Origin: Hydrolagus affinis
Lineage: Eukaryota
Assembly (NCBI GenBank): GCA_012026655.1
Contig: JAAILG010001257.1
Span: 1-64,000, forward strand
DNA: 64,000 bases
Reading direction: 5' to 3'
A program made the translations under genes and the position numbers. The notes beneath the pieces were generated by a model, which had not been told where the DNA came from, did not search any database, and was given only the letters and a program-made list of their open reading frames with translations. Shown in pieces: positions 7,568 to 40,134 of this stretch; within the stretch, counting starts at the first letter, position 1; the number at the start of each line of letters is the position of its first letter.

Positions 7568-8622
7568 TTAAGAGTGCTGCCCCAGAAAGTCATCGAGCGT
7601 TAAGTCATTTATCCAGTCATCATTGCTACTGCTGGTCTTCATGATGGACTCTATGAAGTCAGAGTCATTCCGAGACCCACTCAAGGTACCGCTGTTGTTA
7701 TGCTGGAGAAAGTCAAAAGAAGAAACCTCTGAGGCCGAATTGACACAGTTGTAGGATCCAGATGACAGGCCAGTCGATGTGTAGCTGGCTGGAGCAAGTC
7801 CTGGAGCTGGATGTGTCTGGCCTAAACTGGTGATGCCTGGGGGCACTGGCTTCATACCGGCCAAGGCTGTTAAAGGTAGCCTCGGTTGGTTATTCCTCGG
7901 GGGTTGCCCACTCATGGGGACCAATGATTGTCCATTCTGGCCTGGGTTCAGTTGCTGAAGTGGCCTCATCTGCCCTCCTGGTGCTATCTGGTTTGGTGGC
8001 GCTATGCTTTGATGAGGAAATGGCTGTACAGGTAAATTGGGTCTCATGGTCTGTTTGGAGAAGATCGGACTGTTTGGGAACTGCTGCATGCCGGCGTCCA
8101 TTTTGTTCTGGTTTTGCATGACTGAAATCCTTTGCGGTGCCCACATTTGAGATGCCATGCTCGGGGTGGCTAAAGGATTTGTGATTCCCTGAACTGACAT
8201 ATTAGCACCTGTCTGGTTCATGGATTGCCGTATATGTTGGACAGGTACAGCAGGATTTGCCACCGAGCCACCAAATCCAGAAATTGTTGTCCTTTGGGGG
8301 ATCATGGGCTGGCTTGGGACTGCCTGGCTGCTTGATCTCATTCCCAACGCATTCTGGCTGGGTCGGAGTGGCATATTAATGCCAGACGATGTCACGTTAA
8401 TGCTTGGAGACTGTACATACATGCCTTGTTGACTGCCAGGATTGTTTGGATACATTCCCATCGTCCGGTCACCCTGACTGGCATTGACTGAAGGAATTCC
8501 AGGCCCTAGATTGCTCTGAGACGTGACTTGCAAAAGCGCTTGGTTGAGCCTCATACTACAGTGAGTGGATGCCGATGTTGCCAATGGCTGTCCAGGGTTC
8601 GCAGGCAAAGACTGGGCTACAG
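7568..8622 (-). CDS. MAMLD1: MAMLD1 terminal coding exon; P/Q/S/M-rich region ending in an acidic mastermind C-terminal motif
   Basis: Acceptor tctttattttgttcacag|CT completes the phase-1 codon (G+CT = Ala) and the frame stays open to TAA at 7570-7568. The end DSDFIESIMKTSSSNDDWINDLTLDDFLGQHS resembles recalled MAML2 DADFIDSLLKTEPGNDDWMKDINLDEILGNNS. Confidence 0.9.
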
Positions 8623-8886
8623 CTGTGAACAAAATAAAGATAACAATATTAATGTCACCCTTTCGTAAGGCATATGACATGACTTGTGTCATCAAGTATA
8701 GCAGTCGATGCCTCTGATAAGGTAGGAAGGTGCAAACGATCTGACTATTCTTCCATTGTGAACCTATGAGAGCATTAATCACTTGCTGGGAATTGAAATA
8801 CTCTACAAAGCTTTTCTGACAATACATTTACAACCATCGAATGATATCCTGAGGTTTTTTTTTAAAGCTGCATATATATACACACA

Positions 8887-8887
<1 letters not shown>

Positions 8888-8921
<34 letters not shown>
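8888..8921. repeat. (TA)n microsatellite
   Basis: Direct reading. Confidence 0.95.
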
Positions 8922-8924
<3 letters not shown>

Positions 8925-9708
8925 GCAACAGGGTGCCAAAAAAAATTACGTAACATGTTTTGGACCTATCAGCAATCGGAAATCACCTAGAATTATCACA
9001 CCTGCACAAATGTTGAGTTGATTTATTCCAAAAAGGCTTGGCAAGATCCTTCTGGCTCGTAGCCTCAACCTTTTGGATTCTCTTCACCAATTTACCTGTT
9101 GCACACAAACAACATCCTGCACCAGGATATAGCAACACAAGTCCTCCTCACTTCCTCCTCCTCCTCCTCCTCCTCCTTCCCTTCACCAGTATTTCACAAA
9201 GTGACAGAAACAAATACAGCTGCTTAAGCACTTATACTGGAAATTTTGTTGTGCAGATTTTTTGGAGCCTGTGAGGGGGTGGGAAACACGGGGTGGGGGA
9301 GGGGGGAAGCGGGTTGCGGGGGAGAGTGAAAGAGTGTGTTCTATTGGGAGGGGGAACAGTGAGATTTTTTAAAATAAGAAGTGGATACAACTTTCATTTG
9401 GCAGAAAATACAAATTAAAAACCTGTTAAAAAAAAACACGAGATGGAAATGCAATGAAAGCTTGCGGCAATGCTGCGCAGGCAAATCCACCTCTCGCCTG
9501 GCACAGCTAGCAAACATCCAGATGCTGGAGCCAGGCTCATGGGTAAGATTTTCAGGATCTCGGCTTCCAAGTGAAATAAACGGCATCTCTCCCCTCCATG
9601 CCAAAGACAACTTCCAGGCAGCATGCTTACTGCTTTCCTGATTAAAACATTGAGGCTCTTTTTTTTTTAAAACACAGTATATATTAGATTCTCAAATGAA
9701 GATCTTAC

Positions 9709-9817
9709 CCTGGTACTGACTTAACGGTTGAACTCTGAACGTGCACCTCGATTCCTTGTAATCGGGGGACACTCGTAGCATGTGACCATTCATTTGATCG
9801 TGCTGTCTTTGTTTTTC
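9709..9817 (-). CDS. MAMLD1: MAMLD1 internal exon (MAML exon 4 equivalent), 109 nt, EKQRQHDQMNGHMLRVSPDYKESR...QYQ
   Basis: Strong pyrimidine tract ctttttcag|GAA, donor CAGG|gtaaga, phase 0/1. Aligns by eye with recalled MAML2 EKIAPQDQINRHLSRPPPDYKDQR. Confidence 0.9.
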
Positions 9818-9936
9818 CTGAAAAAGAGACAAAAGGAGGAAACACGGATTTAATAATTTGCCAATGAGTATATCCTGAAGCACAAAAATCCAGATGAAGT
9901 AATACATTTTAATCCAACTATGTGTACAGCTCTTTT

Positions 9937-9938
9937 TC

Positions 9939-9969
<31 letters not shown>

Positions 9970-9994
9970 CCATATATATATATATATATATATA
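9937..9994. repeat. Compound (CT)n(AT)n microsatellite
   Basis: Direct reading. Confidence 0.95.
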
Positions 9995-11954
9995 CAAGTT
10001 TTTGAAACATGTGGTTTTCACTTCACTCCCAACAGATATCAAATGCACATTTAAATGGGTGTTCGGTGGGAGTTGCCTTAACAGCCTCTTCACTGAATTC
10101 ATCCGAGTCTTGTTTGTGTTTTGTTTCGGATTGCGCATTGAATAAAAGATGACTATTCACTAGGTAATAAATCCGAGCAATGTTAAATCTCCTACACTAA
10201 TGAACCAAATAGGTGGTAGCTCATTTGTGCAGTATGGGAGAGGCTGGAGGACATAACATGCAGCCTGCTCTCCAGGTCCTTCAATTAGAAAGCTCCGAGA
10301 CAGATTGACATTTTAGGTGTGTAAGGAATAAAACAACAATAGTTACAGAATTAGGTTTGGAAGGGAGGGAGAGAGAGAGAGCTCGAGAGTCTTTCAGTCC
10401 TTTCAATTCTCTCCGGCCAGGCACCAAGAGAAGATTCAAATAATCTAATGACATTAACAACTATTTTGTCATTTAATTTGTAGATAGTTGCAGCCTGTTC
10501 ATAAAGATCAATCCATTTTATTGGTCTAATGGATTTGGCTGGAGTTTTATGAAAGCTTTCTGTCAAATTGGCAACGCGGCGAAATCCCTAATTTTAAATA
10601 AAGAAGCACAAACAAAGGGCGGGCAGTGAAATGCTTTTTAATGAGCCTTGGATGAAGGGCAATCCCAAAACGGTCCAAAAACCTTTTAACATTTATTTAT
10701 TCCTCTCCCTTTCCATACTTGTCCCTCCCTCCTTTCTTAGGCTTACAAACATGTCCATGACTAATAATGTAATAATAATCAATAATGTTCTTTGATAACT
10801 TGACTGTGTGGGAAGGGTTCCGTCCCCGAACATATTTTCTTTTTGTCGCCAGATATGCGATCTAAGATCCTGTAAAGACACCCTCTACACAGGAAACCAA
10901 AGTTCAAATGTCAGTCAGGAATGGAATTTGAACTCTGGCTCCCAGTTGACAGCTCACTCTTTTCATGTTGTAAGCTGTGCATTTTTCAAGTGTTTAATTT
11001 GCACACAAAAAAATCAAAGACTTCACTGTTGAAAGACTTTTAAGGGTACTTTCAAAAGGTTCAAATGATATACCTTGCTTAGATTCAAGAATATGTGGAT
11101 TTTATAGGATAGGTTTCTTGAATGTAAATTAGATTCACTTTCCACCATCCTGGCAGTCGAATGCACTTGTCTTGTCCCAAACGATATACTGTATCCCACG
11201 GTATTATTTCCTATAATAAGTCTATCTAATTTGTTTTTGATGCTCACTGATGCTCTTTTAAATGCAAAAGCAATGTGGCGAACGCAATAATTGCAGCAAT
11301 TCGAAAACAAGCAGAGATACAGGTTTAACTTCCACCAGTTACCAAAAGGTACCATGCATTCAACAGTGTGCTAGTAGACAAGACCAGAAGGCTGCAGGTT
11401 CGAATCCAAGATCTCAGCCAGGGCAGCACATGCCCACGCTACAATTTGCTTTAACTCTGCTGCATTAGGGAGGGGAAAATCTGCCAAAATTGTCATCCTG
11501 AGATTTGAGCTTAAATGTGCGTGTGTGTATGTGGTGGAGCAGCGGTATAGCTAGGTAGTGCATGTTATCTGTGGGAATAACCCTCGTACTGTAAAACCCA
11601 ATGCTATAAAGACAGTGGGTTCATTACGAAAGCCAAATTACAGCATTGTACAGCAAGATGTGTTGGCATGTGGACACATTTTGCTTTAAACAATTGATTT
11701 TCTTACCTCCCTCAGAATTACCATTAACTGCTGCATAATGAATATCCAATATTTACATAGTGTTTGCGAATAACATCTCTTTAATAATTTAATTTCTATA
11801 CTTTTATTGCTCAAAATCAGTGTAATCTAAGTACAGTATATTACTCTGCCTTTGGTTCTGATGGAGTGGTAACACCAATTACAAACTAAGAAGGTAAACA
11901 CTAAGAGGCCATATTTTGAACTATAATGATAAAAAAATAATAAAATAATAACTG

Positions 11955-12058
11955 TTATAATAAGCCTTGCATTTGATATAGCACCTTATCATGTCTTCGA
12001 GACGACCCAATGCGCTTCAGTAAATGTACTGTAAAGTGTATTTTATGGGTGAAACAAT
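11955..12058 (-). mobile_element. 3' fragment of the young SINE, about 30 bp downstream of the exon donor
   Basis: AATAAGCCTTGCATTTGATATAGCACC...TACTGTAAAGTG tail motif. Confidence 0.75.
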
Positions 12059-12089
12059 AATGCACAGATTCACTCGCAGACTGTCTTAC

Positions 12090-12251
12090 CTGATCAGCCA
12101 TCAACTGTTGTTGGAGGAGATTCTGCTGCTTCTTCAGAAGTTGCTGCTTCAGAAAGGCATGCGATGGGTTTTTTATAAATCCGCTCCCAGAGTTTGAACT
12201 TGGGTTAGAGGATGGCTCTGGCAGCCTTGAAACCATACCAGGGTTATGCTC
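12090..12251 (-). CDS. MAMLD1: MAMLD1 internal exon (MAML exon 3 equivalent), 162 nt, EHNPGMVSRL...NLLQQQLMADQ
   Basis: Acceptor cccgctcttgtag|GAG, donor CAG|gtaaga, open frame in phase 0/0. SNPSSNSGSGF and LLQQQLMAD resemble recalled MAML2 exon 3 (SNPNTGSGY, LLQQQMLAD). Confidence 0.9.
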
Positions 12252-13866
12252 CTACAAGAGCGGGATGACAAAAAAACAACGCAACATGTAATTTTCCATA
12301 AACGCACATTCATTCTTGAATCAAATGATTTTCCTGTCATCCGGACCCTGCTGTTAAGTTTTCCATTGAGCTCCCATGACAAATAACATCTCAGGTATGG
12401 CAGTAAGTCGTACTGACCCGAAAGCATGTACGTACGCTTTCGCCCTCGGCCTTTGTTAATTCTAACTAGGATAGCAATTGAGGTGCTGCAATTAGCCTAA
12501 GTGGTGCTGGGCTCGGGCGGAAGAAAGAGCAGCCACTGATTGCCATCCAAGAGCATGCTTTCGGGCATTGAGGAGAGAGAGCAAGGTAAAATTTGATGGT
12601 CAAGTAGCCTGCCAACTCGCATAGCCTGAGCACCTTCATGGAAATTTTTTATTGAGGCCAAGGTACTGCGTCCAGCAAAGCTGTCAGCACCTTGAAGAGA
12701 GCAGGAGGAGGAGGGGGAGAAGGAGAGAGGTAAAGGGATGTCAGATTGAAGGAGAGAACTCTAATTGTGTTACTGCAACTCAAGCATCAACTCAGTACAC
12801 ACACACACATTCCCAGCATTTGTGACCAATGGTAACACTTGTCGGATGTGAATATATATATATATATTTATATATTATGTAAAAGTCTCGCTTGTCTGGA
12901 CAAATAAGGCATGGTGTGTCTCTCTGTTACATTGGGCATGGGCCAGTCAATCACACGTGAAAGTTAAGTAACTGCACTGGAACGTGAAACAAGGGGAAAA
13001 AAACACAAATGAAATCCAAGTTAGCTTAGATTGAGATCTTTGAGAGCTTCATTTATTTTACGGAGTTGAGTACATCACACAGTGAAGCTTAAGTAACTGA
13101 GCAAATAACATGGGGCTTACCACTATGAGGAACAAGGCACCACAATGAAATTCCAAAGAGCGACTCTTGTTTGGGGTTTCCAAAAATAACTTGCTATTTT
13201 TTGGTTGTTAAATTACACCAAAGTTAATCTGACATAAGTTTATCAAAGCTCTGGAGAGAGAGTGTGCTGTTTACAGTACACTGAGTGCATTGCCTGCTGC
13301 TGTTCTCTTGCAGCCATGCTTGCTCGGTTGTAAACTCTTAAAAAATAAATCAGCCATGTTACACACTACAGACATTAGCAGGAACCGTGAGGAAAGCTCA
13401 GCTCACTGTGTGTCCTGGCAAAAAATAATATAAAAACAGGAAGTGGCACTTGAGAGAACAGGAGGAATTGTTCCTGGATTCTGCGCTTTGTTTCAGTTCG
13501 AACGGAGCCTTCACGATACTGCCCAAGTCAAAATAGTCAAAGCATTTCATTTGCTCGCCCGAGACCAGATAGATTGAAGATTCAGCTCTTCATTTTGTAA
13601 TTGTTATGATGGCGAACGACTGGTTGCCGAAAACACTTGGATTTTATGCATAGTCAATCCACCCCAAAATATATATTGTGTGAAGAGCTTCGAGGCAGCT
13701 CAATGATGTGATAAGACATTATATCAAATACAAGAATTATTATTATTATACTCTAAACCTGCAACTTTAACAGCATGTAGGCAGGAGCAGGTTTTATTTT
13801 TACTGATCTGTACATCAGGTGCCCATGCCATGACATCATGTGAAGTGGCATGTGTGTGTGCGTGTT

Positions 13867-14115
13867 AATAATAATAATGATCCATGCATTTGATATAGCA
13901 CTTTTCATGTTTTCTAGATGTCTCAAAGTGCTTCACAGAATATACTGTCAAGTGAATTGACTGTATTGTATATTTGTGAACGAAATGGGATTATTATTAG
14001 GCATGTGGAGTAAGGAAACTTGCCCACGGTTTTTCGCCCTGACCTGCCTGGTTTCGAACACAGGTCTCAAGCTTGTAAGGTGAATGCTCTAACCACTGAG
14101 CTACAGGAGCTCCAC
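13867..14115 (-). mobile_element. Young tRNA-headed SINE with internal deletion
   Basis: Head with A/B boxes and tail present; central TTGGTCATT...GGCTGC block missing. Confidence 0.85.
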
Positions 14116-17100
14116 AATTGTACTGGATACCATAGCACGCAAGCTCTGGCTGGCCTGGGATACATTACGGACATGGGTGAGTCCCTGTTGCTTTTGGGTT
14201 CGGCCATTCAATCATATATAGCCACCAAAAAAAAATCCCAAGACCACATTGCACATCTGTTATTCACATGTGTTCAGCCATTGCTCACAGATTAAAACAT
14301 GGTTAAGCAACTACACTGGATAGTTAAATACAAATGTTGGGAGTTTATAGGATCTACCCTTACGCCAGGCATTGTGGAATAAGACTCCACATTACGCCAG
14401 ACACCTGAGGCAGGTCAGTCTGCATTATGTATTGGGTGCTGTTCGCTCATTGCTTTGACTGAAATTTAACAACAGGGAAAAAATTTTTTAAATGTTCAGT
14501 CAGCAACAAATCAATTTTCGCCATTTGTTCAAAGGAATAAATCTATCCCGAGGCAAATGGATTTTACGCAGCGAGCAAAAAAATAAAATAAATCGAGGCA
14601 GATGGTTTGCTAAATTCTTCTACTCCAGGATCAATGAACAGAATAAAAAATCTATATTCATCTGTTAGCAATTACAGAGCAGAGAACTGAGGCAGTATTT
14701 TGGTACTCCCCCTCCCCTTCCCTCAAAATAAACATTTTATGAAAAAAAAATCCAGGACTACTTTCTACAAAGTGAAGGAATATTCTGTGGTTTCTGTGCA
14801 TTTTGTAAAATGCGGCTTCAAAGTGTTCTGCCTGAGGCGTGTCCAGAGTTAATGTGTGTTTGGCTCCAGCTTGCATTTTAACCTTTCCCCAACTCTGTGT
14901 AAATTGCTATCCACACACCGATCATTTGCTCCTCATAGCCAGGGTAATTCTGCATGATTCAAAAATCGACTGTTTCTCCCCCAAAATACTTTTTGTTTTC
15001 AAAAACATAGCGTGTTTGTTTTTCACCCTCCGTCTTAGAAGTCGCAAGCACTTCCTGATGACAAATTCAATTACTTTGGAATGGTTCTTCTAAGATTTTG
15101 CTGTTATCCAGTAGCACGGTTGGAAAAAGACATCACTCCCAAGGTGTTGGAGACTACATTGGTCACATAAGTTGCAAGTCTAGTATCTATCTCTCTAAGC
15201 CCAAAGAATTCCACAATGTACTGCCTTCCTACAACAACAGCTTCATTTATATAGCGCCCTTCAGGCAGGCTAGGGTCTCAGAGTGCTTAATAGTGGTCCA
15301 ATTTAATGCAAGGCTGTGGAGGGAGGATGGGGAGGTCTTCAGGTGCAAGCTGAAGATGGGCAAGGAGGGGACATGGTGGAGCGATTGAAGCAAGAGTTCC
15401 AGAGTTGCAGCCTGGAAGGAAAGTACCACTATTTACAGCTTGCTGACTTTATTGAAAGAATAATAAAAAACCAAAAAACTCTAAGTAGTTTTTCATGTTC
15501 GATTGAGAGCTATTTTTGAATGCGCTAAGGAAAGCTGGCATTCCCAAAGACATTTAAACTAACACTGCAATAAAATACTGTGTATAAAAAAATTAAAATG
15601 CTGCCCACAGTTACCCCCCACACACATGCGCACGTACAACTAAGAATCTATCAAATTTATTGCCAAAAGATCGGGCAGTTCATTTCAAAACTTCCATTTC
15701 GCATTTGCGGAGCTAAATACCATAATTACACTGAAGGTATTTTCAACTCATTCAACCTCTACAGGCCCGGGTCCTGGCACCTTGTCAAATGGTGTCATTA
15801 CAGCAGCTGTGACAAGTGGAAATGGCTCCAGTGAAATGGTAAGAGAATACGTGGTGCAGTGAACGAGTTAAACGGCCTCACCACCAATAACAGCGGCCCC
15901 ACGCAGCTTGAATTATTAATCAGATAGATTTTTATATAGATTCGGTATCTGAACCATCATTAATCACCGTTCATTTGTTACTGTTGTGTTGCGAGATGGT
16001 GTGGCCGTATCCCCTTCAGCAAACAAGACTGCAGCTTAAAACCTACACAACACTTTGTGTGCTGTATATTTTTATTTCATCCATTTAAATACACACGCAC
16101 ACATACATACACACACATAAGCACACATACACACACACATGCATACAGACATAGGGCAGGTTCTTTATGGCTCCTAAAGATGTGGGTAAAATCTACGCGC
16201 AAATATTTCTCGTATGAAAGGAAATGGAGTTAGACTATCAAGCATCCTCCAGAGAGGTTACAGCCTTTTCCTTTGAAGCTGTCATGTTACATGTAATGAC
16301 CTCTGCTCATTGAAGTAAAAGTTATTTTTTAAAATATATTTTTGTTTTAAAAAATGTATTTGGAACAGTTTCAGTTCTTGTCCCTAGGGCACATTATTTT
16401 TTTTCTCTCGTGGATTTAGTATCTTAGACAAGTAAACTGGAATAATGAACCTTTGATGTCTGATCCCGGAGTTTGATTTACATCCAGCTCCACAGTAACT
16501 TAATCGGACATATTGCAGAAGGAATCGCTTTTATTTTAGTGTTAAATTTCTCAGGGGAAAAATATTGGAAAAGACAACACTGGTGGTGGGGGCAGTGGGG
16601 GGGAAGAGAAGAGAATCACAATTTGTGTTCCCTCTGCTGTCTTGAAGTTACCAGATTGCACCACTGGTGGGAGCTTTTGCCCTCTTTTAAAAGAAAAATA
16701 GCAAAATGTTCTTTAAAACAGTGCTGGACTGGGGGCAGTGTTTGGTTTGTGCAATGCATATTCTAGTCTAGTAGCTCGCCAAAGAGTCTTGATAGATGGA
16801 ATAGTTGTTGAATGAAATAATGTTCTTTTGTTGGAAACACCCCCAATTAACTTGCTCGCTACTGCAAGGCCAAGACAAGAACTCGACTTAAAAAGATTTG
16901 CCAATAAACCTGCTGGCCTTTCAACACAGAAAACAAATTGCACATAACCAGAGTCTTAACCACACAAAATAGTAGGATCATTTAAATATTGGCTGGAGTG
17001 CTTCGAGATATTGACAGCATTTAAAAAAAGCGCGATTTTGACTCTCCATTTATTTGAACGCTGATGTAAAATATGGTGGTGGTGGTGGAGGGTAAAGTGT

Positions 17101-17753
17101 GGAGTGAATTGAAATAATTAGCACATCAAATTTGTTATAAAACACCATAAATTTCACTTGTATGCATAATGGAGACTGATCACAGTACGGTTTACGTTGT
17201 AAATGATAATCCTTGCTGGTCCGCATTATACTTCGATAATCATTTGCTGATTCATTAATTGAATTTAGCTGTTGTCTGCAGCAGTGAATTAAATATATAT
17301 ATATAGAGAGAGAGAGAGAGAAAGAGAGACTAAATGGAAGTGTGAGATAGGAAAAGGATATTTTTTTTGCCGCTGTCTGATTCTTTCCTGCACCTCAACC
17401 AGTCCTGGCAATGCATTGTATTATTTACCACTGATGCACGTTTTCAAGTCCAATAAGCTTTATTGTTCATTGACAGTGATGTAATGCAGATTGCTGTAGC
17501 ACATGCTTTGTATTGATCGATAATGGCAGAAGGCAGGAGGCAGCAGCAGCCCCTGGACACTGCTGGGCAACTGTTGGAAAGCCTCTTTAGACAAAGAGCA
17601 GATTAGAACAAAGGGTGGAAATGGAAAGTAAGCGATTCAAAACAAAGAAATGTAAAAGAGAATTCAAATAATAAGTATTAAATGAGCAGGAACACAATAT
17701 AGGAGGGGGAAAAAAATACTGCGAGAGAAATGCTCCCTCTTAACGTTGTATTT

Positions 17754-17782
17754 ACACACACATACACACACACACACACACA
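17754..17782. repeat. (CA)n microsatellite
   Basis: Direct reading. Confidence 0.9.
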
Positions 17783-17797
17783 GGGAGAAAGCTAACA

Positions 17798-18102
17798 AGT
17801 CCTGTAGCTCAGTGGTTAGAGCAGTCGCCTTACAAGCGAGAGACCTGGGTTTGATTCCAGGCAGGACAAAACCTTGGGCAAGTGTCCTTTCTCCACACAC
17901 ATGCCTGATAATAATCCCTCGAGAAAAAAAGCAATAATAAATTGGTCATTTCATTGGGTACAGTGCTGTGCGCAATTGGCTGCCGAATTTCGCCCACAAA
18001 TATACAGTGAAATTCACTTTACAGTATATTCCGTGAAACACTTTAAGACGTCTAGAAAACGTGATAAGGCGCTTTATCAAATGCAAGGATTCTTATTGTT
18101 AT
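17798..18102 (+). mobile_element. Full-length young SINE (tRNA-Ala/Val-like head, Deu-like 3' part, (ATT)n tail)
   Basis: A box TAGCTCAGTGG, B box GGTTTGATTCC, GTGCGCAATTGGCTGCCG core, ATCAAATGCAAGGATT tail; at least 7 homologous copies in the window. Confidence 0.9.
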
Positions 18103-22734: not shown

Positions 22735-22754
22735 TGTGTGTGTGTGTGAGTATA

Positions 22755-22789
<35 letters not shown>

Positions 22790-25411: not shown

Positions 25412-25570
25412 TAATAATAACCTTGCATTTGACATAGTGCGTTTCACGTCATCGAGACTTCTCAGAGCACTTCACAGAAGATATGCTGAGAAGTTGTTTT
25501 AACTGTATTTGTTTTGGATGGTGGGAGGGCAGAAGCGTGGCAGCTAGTTTGCACACAGCTATGTCCCTCA
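25412..25570 (-). mobile_element. SINE 3' fragment
   Basis: AATAATAACCTTGCATTTGACATAGTG tail and GGCAGCTAGTTTGCACACAGC core. Confidence 0.7.
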
Positions 25571-26596: not shown

Positions 26597-26645
26597 AGAG
26601 AGAGAGAGAGAGAGAGAGAAAGGGGGAGGGAGGGAGGGAGGGAGA
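26597..26645. repeat. (GA)n/(GGGA)n polypurine tract
   Basis: Direct reading. Confidence 0.9.
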
Positions 26646-27852
26646 GCTTAAAAAAAAGTAGCATTGTTGTAGGAAGGGCTGGTCCGATCAGACAAGTGTA
26701 CCTGGCTGGAGATTGTGTACAGATTAAAAGATGTCCTTTCTCCTCTGCTGTGTTGCTGCTGTGTGCTGTGCTGTGTTCAAACACTCTCAGGCAATACCCT
26801 GTATGAGGGGGCGCTGTACAAATGCAAGTTGCTGTTGTGGTGTGCTTTGGTGGCTCGTTGCCCTCTAAATTAAGCTGCTAGATTGTTGTTTATGTCTCAA
26901 GTATACGTGTAAACAGTTCTTGGCGTCCAGTGAGAGATGAGCATCTCACTGGTGTAAAATCCAATAAAAAGGGCTTGAGGCTACTGAGCTGGGAGGTATT
27001 TTTTTGGGTAGTTTGTGTGCACACAGCGTGGACATTTGTGAAAGGAACTCAGTGTCGGATGGGAAGTTTGATTAACATTCAACTTGTTTTTAAAGATTGC
27101 TGAATTAACAAGCCAGTGAGTGTTCTTGAACACACACCACCAATAGCAAAAACTCTCTTCCTCCCCCCCACCCCTCCCTCAAGTTTCTGACACTATGGGG
27201 GTGGAGGTGAGGGTGAGAGTGGCATGGTAGAGGGAAACAAGAAAAATACCAACTAAAATTACCATTTCACAAAGTGCAGCGTTATTTCTGACGATCGCTG
27301 ATTAAATTCCAGTCATTTTACAGACACAATGGCTGTAAATTTGATCCTTCGGTGCTAAAATTATACATCTACATTCAGTTTAATACCTGGAAATTACGTT
27401 TAAAAAAAACTCACTCACTTAGTGGTTCAGATTGCCAATAAAACCTCGTCTGAATCATTTACTAAAATTGTTCTGTAAATCGCTCACACCTACTTATTCT
27501 CTGTGTCTGAGAAAATTCACATTATATACGTCAAGTGTAATTACCTTACTAATTACTAAACCATTAATATCCTACACATTTCAATAAAATTGTGTTTTTT
27601 TTTAATCTGTCTCTTCTCTGCATGCTCTGCCTAGTTGTTAATCATAACCACTTCATTTCATGTAGTACCTATAACCTGAAACCTTTCATCGGAAATTTCT
27701 CTCAAGTGTAGTGACTGTCTTTGTAGGCAAATGTGGCAAGATCCCACAAACAACTACTGTATAAAGCGAAGAATCAATTTATCCAGAAGATTGTTGGCCA
27801 GGACCCTGAGAGAACCAGTATTAACTTTTCTAGGAGTTAAGGAACTTAGAAT

Positions 27853-27878
27853 TTGTTGTTGTTGTTGTTGTTGTTGTT
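27853..27878. repeat. (TTG)n microsatellite
   Basis: Direct reading. Confidence 0.9.
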
Positions 27879-27906
27879 TCAGTGCCTTGGGACATCCTCC
27901 CGACAT

Positions 27907-28203
27907 GGAGTCCTGTAGCTCGGTGGTTAGAGCACTCGCCTTACAAACGAGAGAGCCGGCTACGATTCCAGGCAGGGCGAAACATTGAGCAAGTTTCCCT
28001 ACTCCACACGCCTGATAATAATCCCACCAGAAAAAACCCAATAATAAATTGGTCACTTCAACCCACGACCGTGCGCAAATTGGCTGCTGCGTTTTGCCCA
28101 CATATAAAAGACAACTCACGTCACAGTACATTCTGTGAAGCACTTTGAGACACCTAGAAGGCGTGAAAAGCGCAATATCAAATACAAGGATTGTTATTAT
28201 TAT
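27907..28203 (+). mobile_element. Full-length young tRNA-headed SINE inserted inside an L2 tail fragment (27881-27906 plus 28204-28238)
   Basis: The flanks join to GGGACATCCTCCCGACAT|GAAAGGAGCAACATAAATGTAATTTGTT, matching the uninterrupted tail family. Confidence 0.9.
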
Positions 28204-30898
28204 GAAAGGAGCAACATAAATGTAATTTGTTATTGTTGCGACATCAAGAAATGTTTAAGGTCCATCTGAACAAGCAGATATGACAGGATCTGGGTTTAAC
28301 AGTCTGACCAGATGGATGGCACCTCTGACAATGCAGCATTGTACTGGAGTGTCAGTATATATTTCCTTTTTTTTATATAAAAACACAAAAGGTTTTATTT
28401 TCATCAATGCTCTGGGAAATAATGTAACCTAATGGAAGAAAAATACACGAAATCGGCAGCAGATTAGATAATATAGTCTGTGGTGGAGCCAGGAAGCTTG
28501 GGAATCGTACAGTGTAGTGTATGTCTGAGCGGGTAGTTCAGCTCCTGATCCTCAGAAGGCTGCTGACATTGTTGAGATAACAAAACAAACATGGAAATGT
28601 ATTTTTAGTCTGCAATTTATTAGTCAACTGACATTTGTACTCACTGGGGGGGAAAAAAAAACGTAACCCTAACCCACTGAAGACTTAATGTACCATTTTG
28701 TCTGTTGGTTTAACATACTCGATCCAAATATTCAGTGAAGCACAACCTTATTTTTCATTTGCAGTTTTCTGGGTCTCATGAAATGTAATATTAAATTACC
28801 AGTTGATTGTGTAAAATGATTGCTATTTAAACTGAATGTTAGTGGCATTGCCATCCACCGCAGGTCTCTTTTCCTACACCATTACACCCAAACCCAGGCA
28901 CTGATTGATTTTTACAATAAAGAGGAGTTTTACCCTTTGACCTTTACCCTTTTGAATTTCTGGATCCCACCCCTGAAATCAGACACTGACTGACTGACGC
29001 TCGGGCTTAAGCCTCGCTTCTCAAAGCAAACGTAATAAGCAGGTGCCAGTAGTTCAGTCCGAGCACACAGAACGTAAACAGCAGAACACGGTCAGAAATA
29101 CACGCCATTCACAATATCTCGGATTGTCCTGTCTGGGGAAAATGTCAGCTGTAGGCAGACATCACTAACTTCGGAATAATTTAATGGCTGCACACCAATT
29201 AGCTCAGCTCACTGACCCGCTGTCCCTATCCATCACATTAATTCAGCCTGGTGCCTCTCTTCCTTTGGCTGTCTGGTGCCTGGGATACAGGAAGGACCTG
29301 TCTGACTGCCCACTCCATCTCTCTCCCAGCAGCAAGACACGAGCCCATCCCCGAGCCACAACCTCCACAGGAAGATTCCGACTGCATCACTCTACATTCG
29401 GGAACAAAGTCTGGGCTGGACTCAGTGGCAACACTGGGTCACACCCGCCCTTCCTCAGCGAGTCAAAATCAGACCTTTCCAGAGAGAGAGAGAGAGAGAT
29501 ACAACAACAATGTAGTCTTTCTACAATGCAGCCTTATCTGTGGGTGTGAAGGGAATCAGCCAGTGAACTGTGTTATCTTTAATTACGCATCTACTGGGCT
29601 GCATTCCAGTACAGCTAACTCAAAAGCTCCCATTTTACATGGAAAGATACTGCTGCTGATTGGAATTTAAAAGGTTAGCGTGTTAATGATGGGGATCCCC
29701 TTTATTCTAATATTATTATTACTGGCATCTACACCACACTGCTGATGTGAACTCGCCCTAGCCGGATTCGACGCATGTAAATGAAGGATCCCACAAAACC
29801 ACTACCGCCACTTGTAACCTTGCATGTAGGCGCACACATGTTTACACAATGCAACATCAAATCAAGCTGAACAGTGGGCAGATGCTTCCCGATTCCCATT
29901 TGCGTAACGCAGCCTTTCTATTGAGGCAAGGTGCTACCTGAAGCCTGGTCTCAAATGCAACCCCCCCCCACCCCCACAACCCCGGCTATGCTCTTCACAC
30001 AAGAATGACAATTATAATTCGATCATGGGCAGGCCAAAGGAAGCCATCTGAACAGCTAAAAGCTACTGGAAAAAAACCCCACAGGAGACACACACACACA
30101 CACACACACTGTTCCAGTCAACCTCAAAACAACATCTCCAAGTTCTGCATGGGTTGTTGAGGCAGGAGGAAGACACAAGGCTGAATTTTCTCTCTTTAAA
30201 AAAAATAATATAACATAATCCAACACTTCACCTCATTGCCAGAATGATCCTCTCTGTGTCAAACCCCATGTTAAAAATGCACGCCTTGTTCATTATTGTT
30301 TTAAATGCCACTGCTGTCAGATTCTAATCCTTTCATTAATTTGCAGTGCAGCTCTAATACTCTATGGAGCGAGTACTTGAACTACTAACACACTAAACAC
30401 ATGCACCAGTGACCACACCAGATATCTAAAGTTATCAACGTTTTCTATTTAAGGTCAGATCCATTAGATTCTTACTGGCTTCATAGCACGCTCCTTCCCC
30501 TCACAGATACACACACACACACACAAAACATGGACAGTGGCCTGACTCCCAATAAAAACAGTTGGTTATGTTGTAACTAGGACTTTTGGACTATTGTCTT
30601 GAAGGTATTATAGGACCTATTAATCCCAGGTGTAAGGATATTGTTTAAGGGTGTAAATACCAGAGAGGAGGAGCATAGCAGTGTACGCATTAGCTAAATT
30701 CCTGCATTACTCTATTTCCATCCAGGGAAATAAAAACTATTGTAAGGAGACTATTGTACGAACAACTGCAACATCATTAAACCTCTGCCATACCTTGCTT
30801 ACCAACCTAGCCAGACACAGTATCTCAAAAGTCATTATAGTGAGGTAAAGTGAAATTGTGGAAGAAAGGGTGAGAGAGTCACACAACTAGTGACGAAC

Positions 30899-31030
30899 AA
30901 TAATAATAATAATAATTCTTGTATTTGATATAACGCTTTTCACATCTTCTAAACATCTCACACGCGCTTCCCAGAATATACTGTAAAGTGAATTGATTGT
31001 ACATTTGTGGGAGAACACGGCAGCCAATTA
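30899..31030 (-). mobile_element. SINE 3' fragment
   Basis: (AAT)n, CAGAATATACTGTAAAGTGAATTGA and GGCAGCCAATT motifs. Confidence 0.8.
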
Positions 31031-32623
31031 ACAATGGGGCTTGTACAAGTGAGGATGATCAAACCTGCGAACCATGATTTAGCAAATTATGGGTAGACTA
31101 TAAAGCGCTCATTTGTGAATAAATCTGTGAAATGATGTGCCCTGTGGAGAAGACATGAAACTGTACCGAATGTGAGAGCTTCATTATATTTTACAGTATG
31201 TTTAGCGCCACCAGGAAAAAATGCAGTATGCACAACGACCACACACAGATTCTTCACTTTAAATTTGCCTAAAAGACGAGACCAATTGAAGAAAGATGAA
31301 ATCCTGACTGCCCAATAAAAGCAAACTCACTTTGTGAGTCCCTCCCCACCCCCTCCCCGGAGAGGAGCTTTGAGAAAAAAAGCACTTGCTTTCCAAAAAC
31401 TCCATCGTGAAACTGCCTCTTCCATTAAAGCATTTCAACAGTATAAAGTCATAATGTAGTATCGTGTAAAACTTTATAGGAAAATAGGTCCACTACAAAC
31501 ACGAGCCACAGCTAAACTCTCCGGGCACTGATTTTTCCCCTTTAGAGCTTGCAGCATCCAACCATTTTCCACCGTGTTCTGTTACGAAAAAATACTTTCT
31601 GAACATCTGTGAGATGAGTGTCTATTTATCCAGATTTCCCCTGGATTCAGAGAATATGATAATCGGCAAAACAGAAGGAATGAAAATCAAGTTAATGTCA
31701 TTTCAAGAGGACTGCCTTTTGTTTTGTTACAAAAAAACATTCTTTTAAAAAACAATTAAAAACATTTAACCTTGCTTTATTTTTTTTCCCCATTTTGAAA
31801 CAGCAACAGTATTCCTTCCTGTCCTCAAACAACACTTTCTGCAAAATGAAACCGCAGCGGTGTAACTCTAATTCAGTCTGCATTACTGTGATCTGCGCAT
31901 TTGCCAATTATGTAAAGTCTAGAATTATAAAACTCATCTTGGAAAGAAAACACAAAGGGGCTTCTGTGTGATTTTTACACAGCTGCATAGCCCGTCATTA
32001 TTGCTTTACACTGAGCACTGACTCCTATCCACAGGGGAACAGGATCGTTCACTATAAATGAGAAAGGAGGGGACTACGTAATTCCAGTTTTAAATAGGCT
32101 CTGTAGGGAATCACAGCAATGAATTGTAGTGCAGTTTACAGTATTTGACTAATTCTCTACCTGTGATCAGACTGAATGGTTTAACTATATAGGATTAGTC
32201 TGCTCACAACAGGAAATCTATGTTGTTATTGGACTTATTGGAGAGCATTTGAAGTCCAGAAGTTTCTGAAATTGGGGAGGATTGAGCTCTGAATGAACAG
32301 ATCCGAACAGTGCAGAAAAAAAAGCCAAGGCAAAAACTCCGAGCTGTTTGGCTGGCACTGAGGAGCGAGATTCGTGATCAGCATGAGTAACAACAACAAC
32401 AACAACAAAATTAGGCACAGATCTCAAACCAATTTGAACATATGGAGCAGTGTTTATTCTTCTGAGCGATATGTCAAAATAGGCTACATTTTAAACCGCA
32501 ATGAGCAACAGCCATTCCTAATGAGCAAACACTGGAAACTTGGCCCGAAATTATGCTTTCTGATGTTTATGTATATATATAATATATACACACATAAACA
32601 TTTTATATATACATTTCTGCACG

Positions 32624-33059
32624 ATTACCCCAGTCCTCACCAGACTTCACTGGTTCCATGTCACAGAGCGGATTGACTTCGAGATCCTCACTCTGGTGTT
32701 CAAATCCCCCCACTTGTCTGCAAACCCCTACCTCTCTAACCTCCTCTCTCCTCACAGCAGTACCCACTGCCTCCCGCTCCAGTGGGTCTGGCCTCCTCCT
32801 TGTCCTGCGAATCCTCCGCTCCACCATCGGCAACCGTGCCTTCAGCCACTACACCCCAAAACTCTGGAACTCCCTCCCTCAATCCCTCCGCCTCACCCCA
32901 TCCTTTTCCATTTTCAGGTCGCACTTGAAAACCTTTCTGTTCGACCTTGCCGACGGTCACCTTCCCCCTCCCTCTGGCTCAGGCCCGGGGCTCTGCTATT
33001 GTGAAGCGCTCTGAGACGCCGCCTTGCGTGGAGGGTGCTATATAAATTCAAGTTGTTGT
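32624..33059 (+). mobile_element. 5'-truncated L2-clade LINE (ORF2 C-terminus, 3' UTR and tail)
   Basis: ITPVLTRLHW..., then after a frameshift IGNRAFSHYTPKLWNSLPQSLRLTPSFSIFRSHLKTFLF, the classic L2 ORF2 end; tail TGTGAAGCGCTCTGAGACG...TATATAAATTCAAGTTGTTGT. Confidence 0.9.
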
Positions 33060-35689
33060 AATATATATTTGTTTTAATGATTTTTTGCAATTTTCTTGAC
33101 TGGTCATAGGAATAAGAACATTTCTCAGTATCATTCCACTGTCCACATTTTAAATGGGTGTTGGGTAATCAAATTGTTCAGCAAAACTGAAGAAGCCCTA
33201 CTTAAGAGACTTTCTCAGTCCGGTGACTGTAGCTAAACTGCTCTGTTTCAGGATTTCAGCAAGTTGGCATGAAGCCCGCTTATTGTCGCTTTACACAGTA
33301 CTTGTTTGTCTCTTCCAGCGAAAGGGACGTAGCAAATAAGAGGCGGAGTGGAGCACACTGCAAGACTATATAATGCAGACATACACCAGTGGTGCTATCA
33401 GTGCCCCTCACTGTTCCACTGTTTTAAAGACATTCCATTCACATTTCACATGTACTATGTGTTTGATTGTCAACCTTCCCCACTCTTGTCTTGTATCTTG
33501 TGGTTGCTGTTGCCGATTCCCATTTTACTGCCACTAATAGGCACAAAGGCCTTGTTGGTTGAGGGAATTGTAACCAATTCTGTACCATACTTTACCGGGA
33601 TGTTTTATGATTATTATTATTGTATACTGCTGCAGTGTAAAGGGGACTGACCGCACCACGCCACATCTGTTCCTCCTGAGCTGCGAGAAGCTTCAGTGCT
33701 AGAATTAAGGCGATGGCCTCCAAGTGCACTTTAACACTCTGCTGACTCCCAGCATCTATCTCAGAGAGAAACGTGAGCCGGCAACTGTGCGTGGACTGGA
33801 AAAAGGCGTCAGCGTAACTGATGCCGCTTTCATCGTGGATTCATATTTTGTACTTCAAAATAAATGAAAGACTTACTTGCTTCCCTCCTGGTACAATTCA
33901 AATTGTTTTTAAACACGGATCTACTGTCTCGCCTGCCAATGTAAAACCCCTTTCTGGTGGGGATTTTGAAGCTCTTTCATTTGAGGCACGGGAAACATAA
34001 AGTTAAATAAGATATATGGCAGACGTACGATTTTGAATAAAATATTGTTTGCTAGTAAACGTTTTTGTGGCTACAGTTTCCGTATCAATCAGAGGGCTGT
34101 TTAGCTACACTGGGGCTCCCTTGGGATTGCTTTCCCACCAGGGTCTATTAATGAATGTTCTGTGGGATTTTGCAGTTTAAATCTCTGACAACAACGGAAA
34201 CTTTGCCTTTACAGATCCACCCCATTAGATATTTCTAATGAGCAGCAAGTTTGTGCAGTCTCAACTGTAATAGAATCCGGTAACTGAAGACATGAATAAT
34301 CAGGAAAATGAAAACAACATATCAAAATAACAAAGTCTATTAAATACACAAGCGGAAGTTCAGCAGACCATTTTTGGTGCTTATGTAATTTAAATGGATG
34401 CTATGTTTTTTGCTGAACCAAAACATATTTTACTTAAGTAAATGTGTTTAAAAAAGGGGGAGTGTGGTTTGCAGCCTCTATACAACCTTCATTAATTAAC
34501 TGGATAGAGGAAACAAACCTCACATTGTAAAGGAATACAATGTAGGAAGTGATTCTTAAACTGGAAAGTCTGGCGAGAACTTATTATCATAACAATTCCA
34601 TTGACCTGCCTGCTTAAAACATAGAGGCTTTTTAAATGACTTCTAGTAAACTGACTAAAAGTACAACTCTATCCGTTTACTATAATGAAAAGTAGATCAG
34701 ATCAAATGTCTCAACGAGGTGAAGTCTAGCCATTAGAAGCTGGAGTGATTGATATTTAAACTCTGGTTCATCCCAAGGCTTCTGGGCACACAAAGGTCCT
34801 ACACAGCTAATGAAACTATGTGTCTGTTTCGCATCCTTTTCACAAGGAGGCTTTCATGAAACAGAGCGAGTTCCTGTTTACAATAACTACTGTTTCCCCA
34901 CCCACCTGCTCTGCTTAAAATTTCTCCAAAAACCCAATGTGCATGTTCTGACTTCTGCCTGTTCAGAAGTGTATGACACCGGGAAACTGAAAGCAGATTT
35001 TTTTTTCCTTTTTCAAAGAAAGTGTTTATTCCTGGTACTAATGAGTTTTACACACCCTTACGGTAAAACTACTGGTGTGCTAGGGGATGACTGATTGTAT
35101 TTTTTTAAAAAAAAGATGTTTTTTTTCACTCTCTCTCTGTCTGATGTCATGTAAAAAACATTGTTTTGTTCATTGACTTTGACCATTTCAAGCAAAGAAT
35201 CTTTCTTTCAGCTCAAAGTGCAACAACCTCCAACGTTTTCAAGAGTTTGCCAGCTTAGATCGTATTTCGCTTTGATGTGGTAAAAAAAACCTTAATCACA
35301 AACATCACCACATTAAGGATTCAACTCCACACTGGAATTCAAGTTTCTGGGACCTGGGCTGCCAAGATCTGAGCGTTTAGCGTCAGAATTATTTAAAAAT
35401 TGAGGGTTTCTTTCACTGATGTGTCACATTAAATGTGCAAAAACGACTTTCAGTCGAAGAATATAAACATATGTTGTTGTTTTAAGAGAAATGAAAGTTA
35501 ACTTTAAAACCGGCGGTTTCAATGCCCTAACTAATGTTTCACTGCTAACTTTCGTCAGTTTCCTTGGAATCTATCTCTTTACTGTTTCTGTTCCTCACTT
35601 TCCCTCCTACGCCCATGGGGGCGGAAAGAAAACCGAAATGTAACTTTCAAGAGCAAAACTGCTCAGAGCAGAGAGCAAGTCAGAGGAGT

Positions 35690-35830
35690 GGGGGTAAATC
35701 ACTACCCCACCTCCTTCCTCCTACACTCCCTGCCCTCCACTCTTCCTGATCCCAACCCCCAGCTCGCTTCCAAATCCCTGACTATCCAGCACCTTGGGAA
35801 GACCTCCTGTTGTGAAAGCTACACAAATTT
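35690..35830 (+). mobile_element. L2-type 3' end fragment
   Basis: CCTGATCCCAACCCCCAGCTCG...CACCTTGGGAAGACCTCCTG matches the tail family. Confidence 0.6.
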
Positions 35831-37669
35831 CTCCACACATAATACTCCACTTGTAAAACTTCCTTCTTTACACCCCCGCCCCACCCCGCCCCCAACCACA
35901 TGATGCCCCATCTGAGAATCTGCTCACTTACCCTCCCAGAAAATCCCATAGTAACTGCCCCCTTTATCTTCACTTTATACTTTGGGAGCCAGCCTGCCCC
36001 TTGCCTCAAACCATCATTCTATCTGAAAAATTTGCCCCTTTGCTCATCTTGGGAATTTGTACCATTCGATTCCAAGCTACCTGGCTGAAGGATTTGCCCC
36101 CTTTGAACAACTAAACCATGTCCCATCCGACAATCTCTCCCTTTATACCCTCAGTATCAGTCTCAACTACTACCAAAAGTCCAAAGAGCGGATGCATTGA
36201 GATGCTGGCGACTGCCTCGAAGTCAACGCACATCCCCTGCCTGCCCAGAAGGTTTTATTTTGATAAGCCATCAAACAGCAAAGCTTTAGCAATATTCAAC
36301 AATGTCAGAAGTGCAGAACCTTTTCTGCAGCTTAATTGGGATTTCTTTTTATTGCCGGGGAAAGGAGAGGAGAGAAAATCAGTTCATTCTTTCACCGGGA
36401 CAGCGCAGTTTCATGAACCCTAAAGCAACGCTTTCCCAATTATGCTTTGAACAAGAGTAATGTGAAGGTCCAGGCGATTATTTAATGAAAAGATTCTACA
36501 AAAGTTCTTCTGCGCGGCTGAATGGGCAGCGCCTTTAATACCGAGTAAGTGCAGTGCCTCGGGCAATGCTGCTATCGACATGAAAACCAACCAAATGACC
36601 ACTGAGCAAGTCATTTCTAACACCGGGGAGAGAAAACAAGAAGCCAACCCTCTAACTCATTGCTCCCAGACAGCACTGATTCATCATCCTTTATTCGTCT
36701 ATTCAAAGGCATTCAATTAGCTGCAGGGGCTGCTGCTGTGGTTCAGAAGCTGCATACACCCTCACACCCTCAAAAGCTCACAGTCTGCCTGCCATTGGAA
36801 TTGCCACAGCCCTTTGAAATCAAATCCTTTCTCTCTCTCTCTCTCTACTAGCATGTTTCAAGAGGTTTATTCCACAGTTTAAATGTCCAGCAACCATTAC
36901 AAAATCAGGATTTGGGGAGGGGGAGAGAAGAGGAGTTAGAAGAATTAATTTTTAATTCTGCTAATAACCCTAGACAAGGCTATACATTCCTTAAAGCCCA
37001 AGAAAGCTGAGTATTTTGAATGCACATTCGCTCTTTCAACAGAACAAATGCACTAAGACATTCGCTTCTGAACATCCCCAGTAACCTCACCGATGACAGA
37101 AAAATATATACGTTTTTAAATACAGGAAGATTGTAATTGTTTTGTGAGCATTAAGACAGTGAAGGAGCATAATTTGTTTGTGAAAGCGATCATCTTCCCG
37201 TTAGGAGAGCTTGCAGAACGAACAAAAAAAACTCGCACAGCCAAATGAGTTTCAGGGCCCAGGCAACAGCTGCTGGCAGTGTATTCACTGCCTGCTCCAG
37301 AGATCAGATTTCATGCTTTTTTGTTCCCTCTCCAGCTGGCCAGCTTCCACATTCCTCCACCCACAAAACTCTAACTCACTGTAAACTTTGGCCTCTCTGC
37401 TGCTCTGCTTGTGTCATTCCCAGAAACAGAAACCAAGCACAGGCATTAGGAATTGAGAGTAAAAAAAATGCCCTCGTTTCAAAACCTTTTTTCCTATATT
37501 ATCCTGTTTTTTTCTACAACAACCAGAAATAGGAAGACCTCATTCCGCTCGCTGCTAGTTGTTTGGCTCTTTAATTAATGACTGAAGGTACCAATTGACA
37601 ATCTCCACCTTAAAGATATCACATCGAAAACGTCCCCAAATGCCTCGCAGAGCTTTTGCTTTAAAGGTG

Positions 37670-37920
37670 TAGTAGTCGAGAATTTGTAGACAGGGTGGCA
37701 ACCAATTTGCACTCAACAATGTCCCACAAAGAGCTGTGAAGTGAATGACATTGTTTTCTCTCTCATCTCATCCAAAAGACAGCACCTTGGATAATGCAGT
37801 CCTCCACAGTGCTGCTTTGAAGTGTCAACATAGATTATGATCTGAAAGTCCAGAAGGTAGAGAGGCTTGAATGTCTGACTTGGAGGCGAACATACAACCA
37901 ACCGAGACAAGCTGACACTT
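37670..37920 (-). mobile_element. Old Deu-type SINE, internally deleted
   Basis: GGCAACCAATTTGCAC, TCTCATCTCATCCAAAAGACAGCACC, and a tRNA-like head remnant at 37860-37915. Confidence 0.6.
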
Positions 37921-38140
37921 ACATAATCTGTTCAAATCATTTGCCATTAGTGAGGAAATGTCAACATTGGTTAAAAAATAATACGTAGACACATATTCAG
38001 AATTTAGCAGAATATAATGCGGAATATAGTGATAGTCTGGGAGCCCCCAGATTTCTGTCCGAAGCTCGTCCAACAGAGCAGCTCCTAGCAAAGGGAGGTG
38101 GTTTGTGAAGCAGCAATGGCAGACATTGATATAAAAACTT

Positions 38141-38260
38141 ATAATAATAATAAATAATCCTTGCATTTTGATGTAGCGCTTTTTCACATCTTCTAGACGT
38201 CTCAAAGCGCTTCACTGAATGTGCTGTAAAGTGAATTGACTGGATATTTGTGGGCGAATA
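38141..38260 (-). mobile_element. Young SINE 3' fragment
   Basis: Tail motif closely matches the full-length copies. Confidence 0.85.
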
Positions 38261-38709
38261 TTAGAGTATATTTGTGTATGTTATAGTTACCGATTTGCTT
38301 GCCAAATGTTTGCCAACATGTGACGTGCAAGCCAGACAATTCAAGAGAGGGAAAGGGGGCAAGTTTGGAGAATTAAAGTCGGTAGCAAACAAATCAATCA
38401 CCAGTTTGGGCTGAGGTACATTTCTGGAAAGGTGCGATCTTCATGGAAAAGCTTTGCAATGAAGGCTGCTATTTGAAACGGTTCGAAAGAATTTTAATCG
38501 TCTCCAATGTTAGTAGACTCGTATTTCTCATGTGACATCCGATAATGATTGGTTACTGGAGCTGGGCCTGCCGGAAGTGCTAGCTGCCCATTCACCTTTA
38601 ATCGATTAGAAAAAATGCTAACGTAGAAAAAGGTCCCATTTTAAAATACAGTATTTTTTTTTTGGGGGGGGTGGGGTGTTGGTTTACAAGAGTCTTATAT
38701 CTTACTTAC

Positions 38710-40134
38710 TGGTCTAATTTGAGGCGTCAGTCCCGGGTGCTGCAGGGATCTCTGCCGCAGTTGCTGCATGCGTAACTTCTGCTCGTTCGCTTGTCGCATC
38801 TGGAAATGCAGCGACGTCGTCTGCTGGGTCGGGCCAGGTTGCGGAGATTGCTGCACTGCCGAGGCGGCTTGCTGCATGTAATGCACCACAGAGGGCTGAC
38901 CCTGACCCGCTGCCACTGTGGGCAGCTTCTGAATCGAAGGATCTGGGTCAAAATGCGACAGTGGCTTGGTGTTGCTGAACGAAAGCTGCTCTGAAGCCAG
39001 GGAGTTGTCATTGACCGCCCCCTGGCTCAAACCGGGTTGCGGCTGTACCATCATGTTGATGCGGGCGGGGGGAGCTTTGTTATACCGGTAACTCTGAATG
39101 GCACTGGCCGGATTGTTTGGAGCAGCAATGTTGGGTAGCATTGGAGTCGGGGGACTGAAAGGCTGCTGGTGCAGGGAAGGACTGGGAAGTTTGTCCGGTC
39201 GGTAGGGAGGAGAAGGTCCAGAGGAAGGAACGGGGTGCCAGTTAGGCGCCTGCCCCGGCTGCGGATGTGGCTGTTGGGAAACGGAGCGCTGCTGTTGGCT
39301 GGCGGCTATTTTCTTCAGTTGCTGTGCATGTGACAACTCGCGCCAGTTGGGGCCAGTCCTGTTGGCGTTGGTGCCGGACAGCAATGGCGGCTGGGTTTGG
39401 CTTGGAGCTTGGTTCTGGGACGCGGACGACATGGGCAACGGCATTGAATTCGCTGGAGCCGGTAACGGATATGACGTACCTGCGGACGGGGGCCTTCTCT
39501 GCGGAGACCCAACGGGTGCCTGACTGTAATTTGGAGAAAATTCCCTGCTAGGTAAGGGATTGTCCAAGTGTGAGGCTGCTTGAGGCGATGGCTTCTGGCT
39601 GCTGGCCTGACTCGTTTGCACGAGGCCCAGGTTAAGAGGGTCACTCCTGTTGCTCAGCATGTCAAGTTCATTTGGCATGTTTGTCAACTCCTCCAAAAGG
39701 TCTTCCAAATCCTGGTCCATGGTTTGTATGTTGTTACCCCCTTTCGAGTCGAACGAGAACATGTGTCCGTCCACCGCGTTGGGTTTCATCTCCGCGTTTG
39801 GCGCCACGGGAAATTGCGAACCGATGTCGCCGCCGTTCACTTGGCTGCTGCTGAGCAGGCCTGAATTGCGGACCGTGGTCACGCATCCCAAAGACGGCCC
39901 CATCGAGGCGGGAGTCTGCAAACCCTGGCTGCGGTGACCGATCGGCAGCGCCGAGTTTTGCACGTCGGAGCAGAGGACGCGAGCGGCGTCGCCGCGACCC
40001 ATTGGAAGACTGACATCGTCAAGACATATTCTTTTAACCTCGGGTGGGAAGGCGCCATCGGCAAGCTCGTTGATCTTGTCATTACCTGCCGACGAGCCGT
40101 TGCTTTCCAAAGTCCGCTTTATTGATCCTTGTAG
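38710..40134 (-). CDS. MAMLD1: MAMLD1 (mastermind-like domain-containing 1), large internal exon equivalent to MAML exon 2; 1425 nt, phase 0/0
   Basis: Acceptor ttattttatcttttgcag|CTA with a CCTAAC branch-like motif at 40163-40168; donor CCA|gtaagt at 38709. Peptides ELADGAFPPEVKRICLDDVSLPMG, DQDLEDLLEELT, GPSPPYRPDKLPSP and SFSNTKPLSHF..QKLP..QPSVVHYMQQ match recalled human MAMLD1 (DMADGGYPNKIKRPCLEDVTLAMG, DQELQELLEELT, GPSPPYRPEKLSSP, FGNTKPLSHF) better than MAML2. Confidence 0.9.

Follow-up and report, generated by a model that had tools for sequence, protein, structure and literature searches.

Structure of the locus and its first exons

The window analysed here is a stretch of 64,000 nucleotides from the genome of Hydrolagus affinis (G000:C1257:1-64000; contig C1257 extends to 70844). 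Its minus strand carries four exons of a gene that is the orthologue of MAMLD1 and the sister paralogue of MAML2. Very probably, the gene produces a transcript with a first exon of 18 codons, so that the protein lacks the basic helix of the canonical mastermind proteins and is likely a nuclear co-activator not recruited via the groove of CSL and the Notch intracellular domain (NICD).

The four exons, all on the minus strand, were joined into a frame of 2751 nt encoding 916 amino acids (aa) and one stop, with phases 0,0,0,1 and GT-AG splice sites. Exon 2 (38710..40134; 1425 nt, 475 codons, phase 0-0) is 89% identical to the Callorhinchus milii protein P0001. It is followed by the glutamine-rich exon 3 (12090..12251; 162 nt, 54 codons, phase 0-0), exon 4 (9709..9817; 109 nt, phase 0-1) and the coding portion of exon 5 up to the stop (7568..8622; 1055 nt including TAA). 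Each of exons 2-5 is 75-91% identical to P0001. The AG acceptors of all four exons are pyrimidine-rich and the first three exons end in GTAAG donors. The joined reading and its splice sites reproduce the four exons, phases and protein length of the preliminary description of this DNA, and the motifs that it quoted were found as well (LQGSIKR at 40134, GSPQRRPP at 39510, WRELSHAQQ at 39345 and NDDWINDL at 7624). The first poly(A)-signal hexamers on this strand are located at 7319 and 7269, about 250-300 nt past the stop codon. The part of intron 1 included in the window (40135..64000, minus strand) contains a 100-base N gap (47065-47164) and neither a basic-domain exon nor a leader exon.

The first exon was found outside the window, on contig C8247. 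This exon 1a (G000:C8247:27131-27184, plus strand) reads MLLVSQRVETPRMEPHLS and consists of an ATG-initiated frame of 18 codons with a phase-0 GT donor; an in-frame stop lies 29 codons upstream. Exons 1a and 2 were examined with RNA reads of a close relative, which came from three runs on one sample (27-30% of each run). In five reads of run X4, the last base of exon 1a is followed directly by the first bases of exon 2; therefore, C8247 and C1257 belong to one transcript and no basic domain lies in between. Nearly all reads on exon 2 run the same way, and the flanking bins 38500-38691 and 40164-40227 have zero depth. Alternative 5′ joints at exon 2 are not visible in the reads because a highly transcribed repeat swamped the read-end table.

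Leader 1a opens the MAMLD1 models of chimaera, sharks, rays, gar, bowfin, amphibians, reptiles, birds, echidna and a marsupial, and stands at the start of 72 of the 155 MAMLD1-type proteins of at least 700 aa. Within its first 14 positions, 13 show 93-100% identity across 59 proteins, a figure biased by the choice of these proteins through the pattern of their first five residues. When the 18-residue leader of the models was searched on C1257, the exon was absent, and a scan of this contig with the leaders of 11 other models gave nothing convincing. Exact end overlaps joining C8247, C6420 and C1257 were not found. On C6420 there is a candidate exon 1b (G000:C6420:28162-28109, minus strand, locus L033), which reads METMLVFRSFLFQFHFKV and has 18 codons, phase 0 and a GTAAGT donor. 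Starts of this type were identified in the gharial and in four models of sharks or rays, with 14 of 18 residues identical, and by this resemblance exon 1b presumably belongs to H. affinis MAMLD1. Leader 1b is hydrophobic and unrelated to leader 1a. The two deeply conserved first exons are a modest and unexplained lead.

The region upstream of exon 1a on C8247 (L005:1000-1500) is marked by GT/GTGA microsatellites and has ten upstream ATGs in 500 nt, of which one opens a 70-codon out-of-frame open reading frame (ORF). Sparse same-strand reads lie on parts of the region.

The basic helix and the 18-codon leader

A basic-domain profile was built from 16 MAML1-3 helices. It matched 39 of 54 MAML1-3-type proteins (the 16 by construction) and none of the 155 MAMLD1-type proteins, many of which are isoforms of one gene or 5′-partial bird models, so that the 155 are not independent tests. 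The Pfam MamL-1 domain was detected in all three shark MAML2 proteins and in none of 24 MAMLD1-type proteins. No basic domain was revealed among the 43 cartilaginous-fish MAMLD1 models of at least 700 aa, nor by a profile hidden Markov model (HMM) and tblastn on C1257 (to 70844), C8247 and C6420, where the best E value was 0.075 and the controls gave 1e-30. The HMM search beyond position 64000 thus yielded nothing up to the contig end.

Further points weigh against the absence of the helix. Absence in the genome-wide search alone proves little because this search also missed the basic-domain exon of MAML2: Pfam MamL-1 gave two matches for the three canonical genes. Intron 1 is incompletely assembled. 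Only 25 reads (9 + 7 + 9) lie on exon 1a, its junction exceeded the listing threshold in one of three runs, no reads were placed on it in run X1, and all of this evidence comes from a single sample of a relative. Finally, the reads break off where a repeat was skipped (L005:1359-1434), which formally leaves room for an in-frame exon at the repeat edge.

The leader itself could derive from the basic helix by reduction and still weakly contact CSL or the Notch ankyrin domain, tuning Notch output. Its strong conservation agrees with this, as does the best ungapped placement on the profile, which sets SQR[VI]E on RQRIE and is also given by MAFFT; a score this high is reached by about 5% of random MAMLD1 18-mers. 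However, the placement is not better than that of the leader's own shuffles (p 0.28-0.31), 18 residues with prolines at position 11 and often 15 stand against a domain of 58 positions, and neither the HMM nor Pfam gives a match. We consider this reading of the leader quite improbable.

Even less credence can be given to a rarely used upstream basic-domain exon that would still provide an isoform acting as a canonical CSL-NICD coactivator. Such an exon would be allowed for by the incomplete assembly of intron 1 and of the sequence upstream of C8247, by the failure of the genome search to find MAML2 exon 1, by the several alternative N-termini of the shark models and by a repeat 5′ of the ATG across which reads are untraceable. 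Nevertheless, exon 1a is spliced directly to exon 2, the three contigs and the cartilaginous-fish models contain no basic-domain match, the CAG at the repeat edge is preceded by a G-rich and not a pyrimidine-rich stretch, and single same-strand reads were found further upstream of this edge. The suggestion of the preliminary description that the gene may be a canonical Notch coactivator with a basic-domain exon upstream is thus not supported, the isoform seen having the leader joined straight to exon 2.

Two look-alikes of the helix were rejected. A third MamL-1 match in the genome, on C2299, had an E value of 1.2 and three stops. A resemblance to the helix start at C8247:26528-26566 (8 of 13 residues, E 0.52), some 600 nt 5′ of exon 1a, was attributed to chance; it sits in a repeat, and 20 of 59 blastn hits (including the self-hit) cover it. 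For MAML2 of the same genome, exons 2-5 are present (C1832, C58851 and C11588), whereas neither Pfam nor a protein search detected the exon 1 with the basic domain; this is probably an assembly or search gap.

Orthology to MAMLD1 and ancestral-like traits

To evaluate the identity of the gene, phylogenetic trees were constructed without exon 1 and rooted on MAML1/3, with jawless and invertebrate outgroups absent. The window protein was placed beside Callorhinchus inside MAMLD1, grouped with the bony-vertebrate proteins, and MAMLD1 was sister to MAML2. A tree of 22 rows (759 of 1429 columns; 100/100 support) and a tree of 31 rows gave the same topology, and in the 22-row tree, forcing the cartilaginous-fish clade to MAML2 was rejected by the approximately unbiased (AU) test (p-AU 1e-63). 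The rows were hand-picked: four near-redundant MAMLD1 rows and P0232 were removed before the 31-row tree and nine more before the 22-row tree, and eight row labels were assigned from sequence features and not from database names. The phylogeny bears out the assignment to MAMLD1 made in the preliminary description.

The same genome contains a separate MAML2 on the three contigs named above, which is 70-81% identical to shark MAML2 and has phases 0,0,0,1 (assigned by eye), as well as a separate MAML1 (C129) and MAML3 (C17638, C25242 and C2214). With exon 2 as the query of a protein search, 120 of 186 longer proteins were listed. The best 11 matches listed were cartilaginous-fish proteins of 840-938 aa without a Pfam domain (63-89% identity), followed among the matches listed by bony-vertebrate MAMLD1, that of birds included. 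Lower in the ranking, with 38-39% identity, was true shark MAML2 (about 1040-1050 aa, with PF09596). The spliced protein is 91% identical to Callorhinchus milii XP_042196554.1, 42-47% to non-placental bony-vertebrate MAMLD1 and 42% to shark MAML2. The motif R.CL[DE]DV was present in 14 of 14 MAMLD1 and in 0 of 7 MAML2 proteins.

MAML2 with MTMR2 and MAMLD1 with MTM1 form a paralogon. None of 59 myotubularin matches fell on C1257, C8247 or C11588, contigs too short to show MTM1 synteny.

That the gene is MAML2 or a lineage-specific duplicate of it is scarcely credible: the NCBI name of the best 11 listed matches ("mastermind-like protein 2"), the nearly equal identity to shark MAML2 and to MAMLD1 and the identical exon phases speak for it, but it is refuted by the AU test, the tree and the paralogue inventory, by the presence of true MAML2 in the same genome and in the same shark species, by the MAMLD1-diagnostic motifs, by a leader exon that tetrapod MAMLD1 has as well, and by UniRef and an older RefSeq record, which label the Callorhinchus protein MAMLD1. 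NCBI gives this same name to shark and ray MAMLD1 and MAML2 alike (P0001-P0011 and P0123-P0150), so the database name of the orthologues is misleading. The gene is an ordinary cartilaginous-fish orthologue of a known gene, of which a related chimaera protein is already modelled; the homology of MAMLD1 and MAML2 is long known, as stated in an earlier paper (PMC4004825).

Several motifs of the protein were located on the minus strand of the window. EVKRICLDDV (40012..40041) aligns with the nuclear localization signal (NLS) of human MAMLD1 (aa 79-89, PMC6718408) and may act as an NLS here too. In the acidic mastermind-like motif DQDLEDLLEELT (39682..39717), the first Leu aligns with human L103 in the old numbering, a correspondence that relies on an inferred numbering offset. 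A single GPSPPYRPDKLPSP unit (39178..39219; columns 446-565 of alignment A1) occupies the SPPY.P.KL site, which carries an expanded repeat in bony-vertebrate MAMLD1 and a single diverged unit in MAML2. The acidic C-terminal motifs, SDFIESIMK and then NDDWINDLTLDDFLG (7580..7663), are homologous to the mastermind C-terminal acidic domain.

The MAML2-type plan of exons 2-5 and the acidic tail, regarded in the preliminary description as specially retained, are not so: the tail pattern occurs in 146 of the 155 MAMLD1-type proteins, including a 984-aa bonobo isoform. Among the MAML2-like motifs that it listed, LQGS.KR and GSPQ.RP turned out to be common in bony-vertebrate MAMLD1 (11 and 10 of 14), whereas W..LS.AQQL is indeed rare there (4 of 14). 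Summed branch lengths from the MAML2/MAMLD1 split amount to 0.63 for the window protein, 0.98 for chicken, 1.65 for bonobo and 0.40 for shark MAML2, which makes the window protein the slowest-evolving MAMLD1 in the tree. The truly ancestral-like traits are the W..LS.AQQL motif, the single SPPY.P.KL unit and the short branch. The proposed proximity to the ancestral ohnologue holds as regards the exon phases of MAML2, the slow rate and the unexpanded repeat, and does not hold for the tail and the exon plan. In the hedgehog MAMLD1 models P0185, P0280, P0282 and P0283, of up to 1305 aa, the acidic tail is missing and the C-terminus is unrelated and repeat-like.

Other features of the window include a repeat of about 300 nt resembling short interspersed nuclear elements, with 18 blastn matches (e.g., 48881-49200, 17798-18093, 27906-28192 and 40301-40593); the part at 40290-40400 reached a read depth of more than 10,000-fold in poly(A) RNA. 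The open frame at 32598-33011 (plus strand) resembles the 3′ end of a CR1/L2-type long interspersed nuclear element. Besides the MAMLD1 exons, 16 long frames of the window were searched against Pfam, and none matched; the frame at 32598-33011 had no match. The ESM Atlas search with residues 1-70 gave no usable feature match; the model was of low confidence (pLDDT 0.40) and the structure rows were not used.

Proposed function and comparison with known mastermind proteins

In canonical masterminds, the N-terminal basic region binds NICD-CSL and the acidic domains activate transcription, as described in PMC7787167. Because the helix is absent from H. affinis MAMLD1, its entry into the CSL-NICD-MAML complex would not be expected. 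A KR motif near the beginning of exon 2 would provide nuclear import, to judge from human and mouse work, and the largely disordered body rich in Gln, Pro and Ser, with its internal and C-terminal acidic motifs, may activate transcription when tethered by other DNA-binding factors. PMC6718408 reports that the L103 mutation of human MAMLD1 abolishes Hes3 transactivation and that the MAMLD1 portion of a YAP1 fusion co-precipitates NFIA and NFIB. The NLS-like motif and the Leu equivalent to L103 are conserved in H. affinis MAMLD1; Hes3 transactivation and NFI binding, shown for the human protein or fusion only, may apply here by analogy. A point against this function is that, according to PMC3084764, Hes3 was unchanged on mouse knockdown, so the mammalian mechanism is unsettled and its targets are uncertain.

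Most likely, a single replacement of the helix by a short leader took place between the MAML2/MAMLD1 duplication and the split of cartilaginous and bony fishes; the loss of the helix likely predates crown jawed vertebrates. A broader scenario is possible, though we regard it as rather doubtful: two alternative 18-codon leaders would have replaced the Notch-binding exon in one gnathostome mastermind duplicate, and this would be the origin of MAMLD1. The leaders would be nearly fixed (1a from chimaeras to marsupials, 1b from sharks to the gharial) as unrecognised targeting or docking modules that set MAMLD1's own partner, and placentals would have replaced them, so that the ancestral function was missed in studies of the human protein. 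A literature search, whose coverage excluded most subscription journals and supplements, found no study of early helix loss, the leader exons, the origin of MAMLD1 or MAMLD1 in fishes.

The data do not bear out the idea of a surviving canonical fourth mastermind. They do clarify, in a small way, the evolution of a gene associated with ependymoma fusions and disorders of sex development, and they call for correction of the shark database names. They also indicate that, among vertebrates, the conserved form is the long isoform, which carries the acidic tail; in human work, by contrast, a 774-aa isoform is treated as canonical (PMC4646284). The same paper gives human isoform 1 as 998 aa, with another C-terminus for isoforms 2 and 3.

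A comparison with canonical MAML1-3 indicated that their internal and C-terminal acidic domains are also present in H. affinis MAMLD1, unlike the PF09596 helix. MAML2 has exon phases 0,0,0,1, W..LSHAQQLK, NTKPLSHF, PPNQ.AP and the tail motif in common with it, and differs in an exon-1 region of about 105 aa with the CSL-NICD-binding PF09596 MamL-1 domain, in place of which H. affinis MAMLD1 has 18 codons. The long form of bony-vertebrate MAMLD1 (about 950-1030 aa) is the orthologue, similar in the NLS-like KR.CL.DV, DQ.L..LL.ELT, the acidic tail and the lack of a basic domain. The leader exon is likewise common to H. affinis and to bird, amphibian, gar, monotreme and marsupial MAMLD1, whereas the placental MAMLD1 proteins seen (P0178 and P0189) have a different N-terminus. 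Compared with bony-vertebrate MAMLD1, the H. affinis protein evolves more slowly and has a fuller likeness to MAML2 in exons 3 and 4. The closest counterparts, Callorhinchus milii XP_042196554.1 and the shark and ray orthologues, have the same leader and tail and differ from it only by ordinary species divergence.

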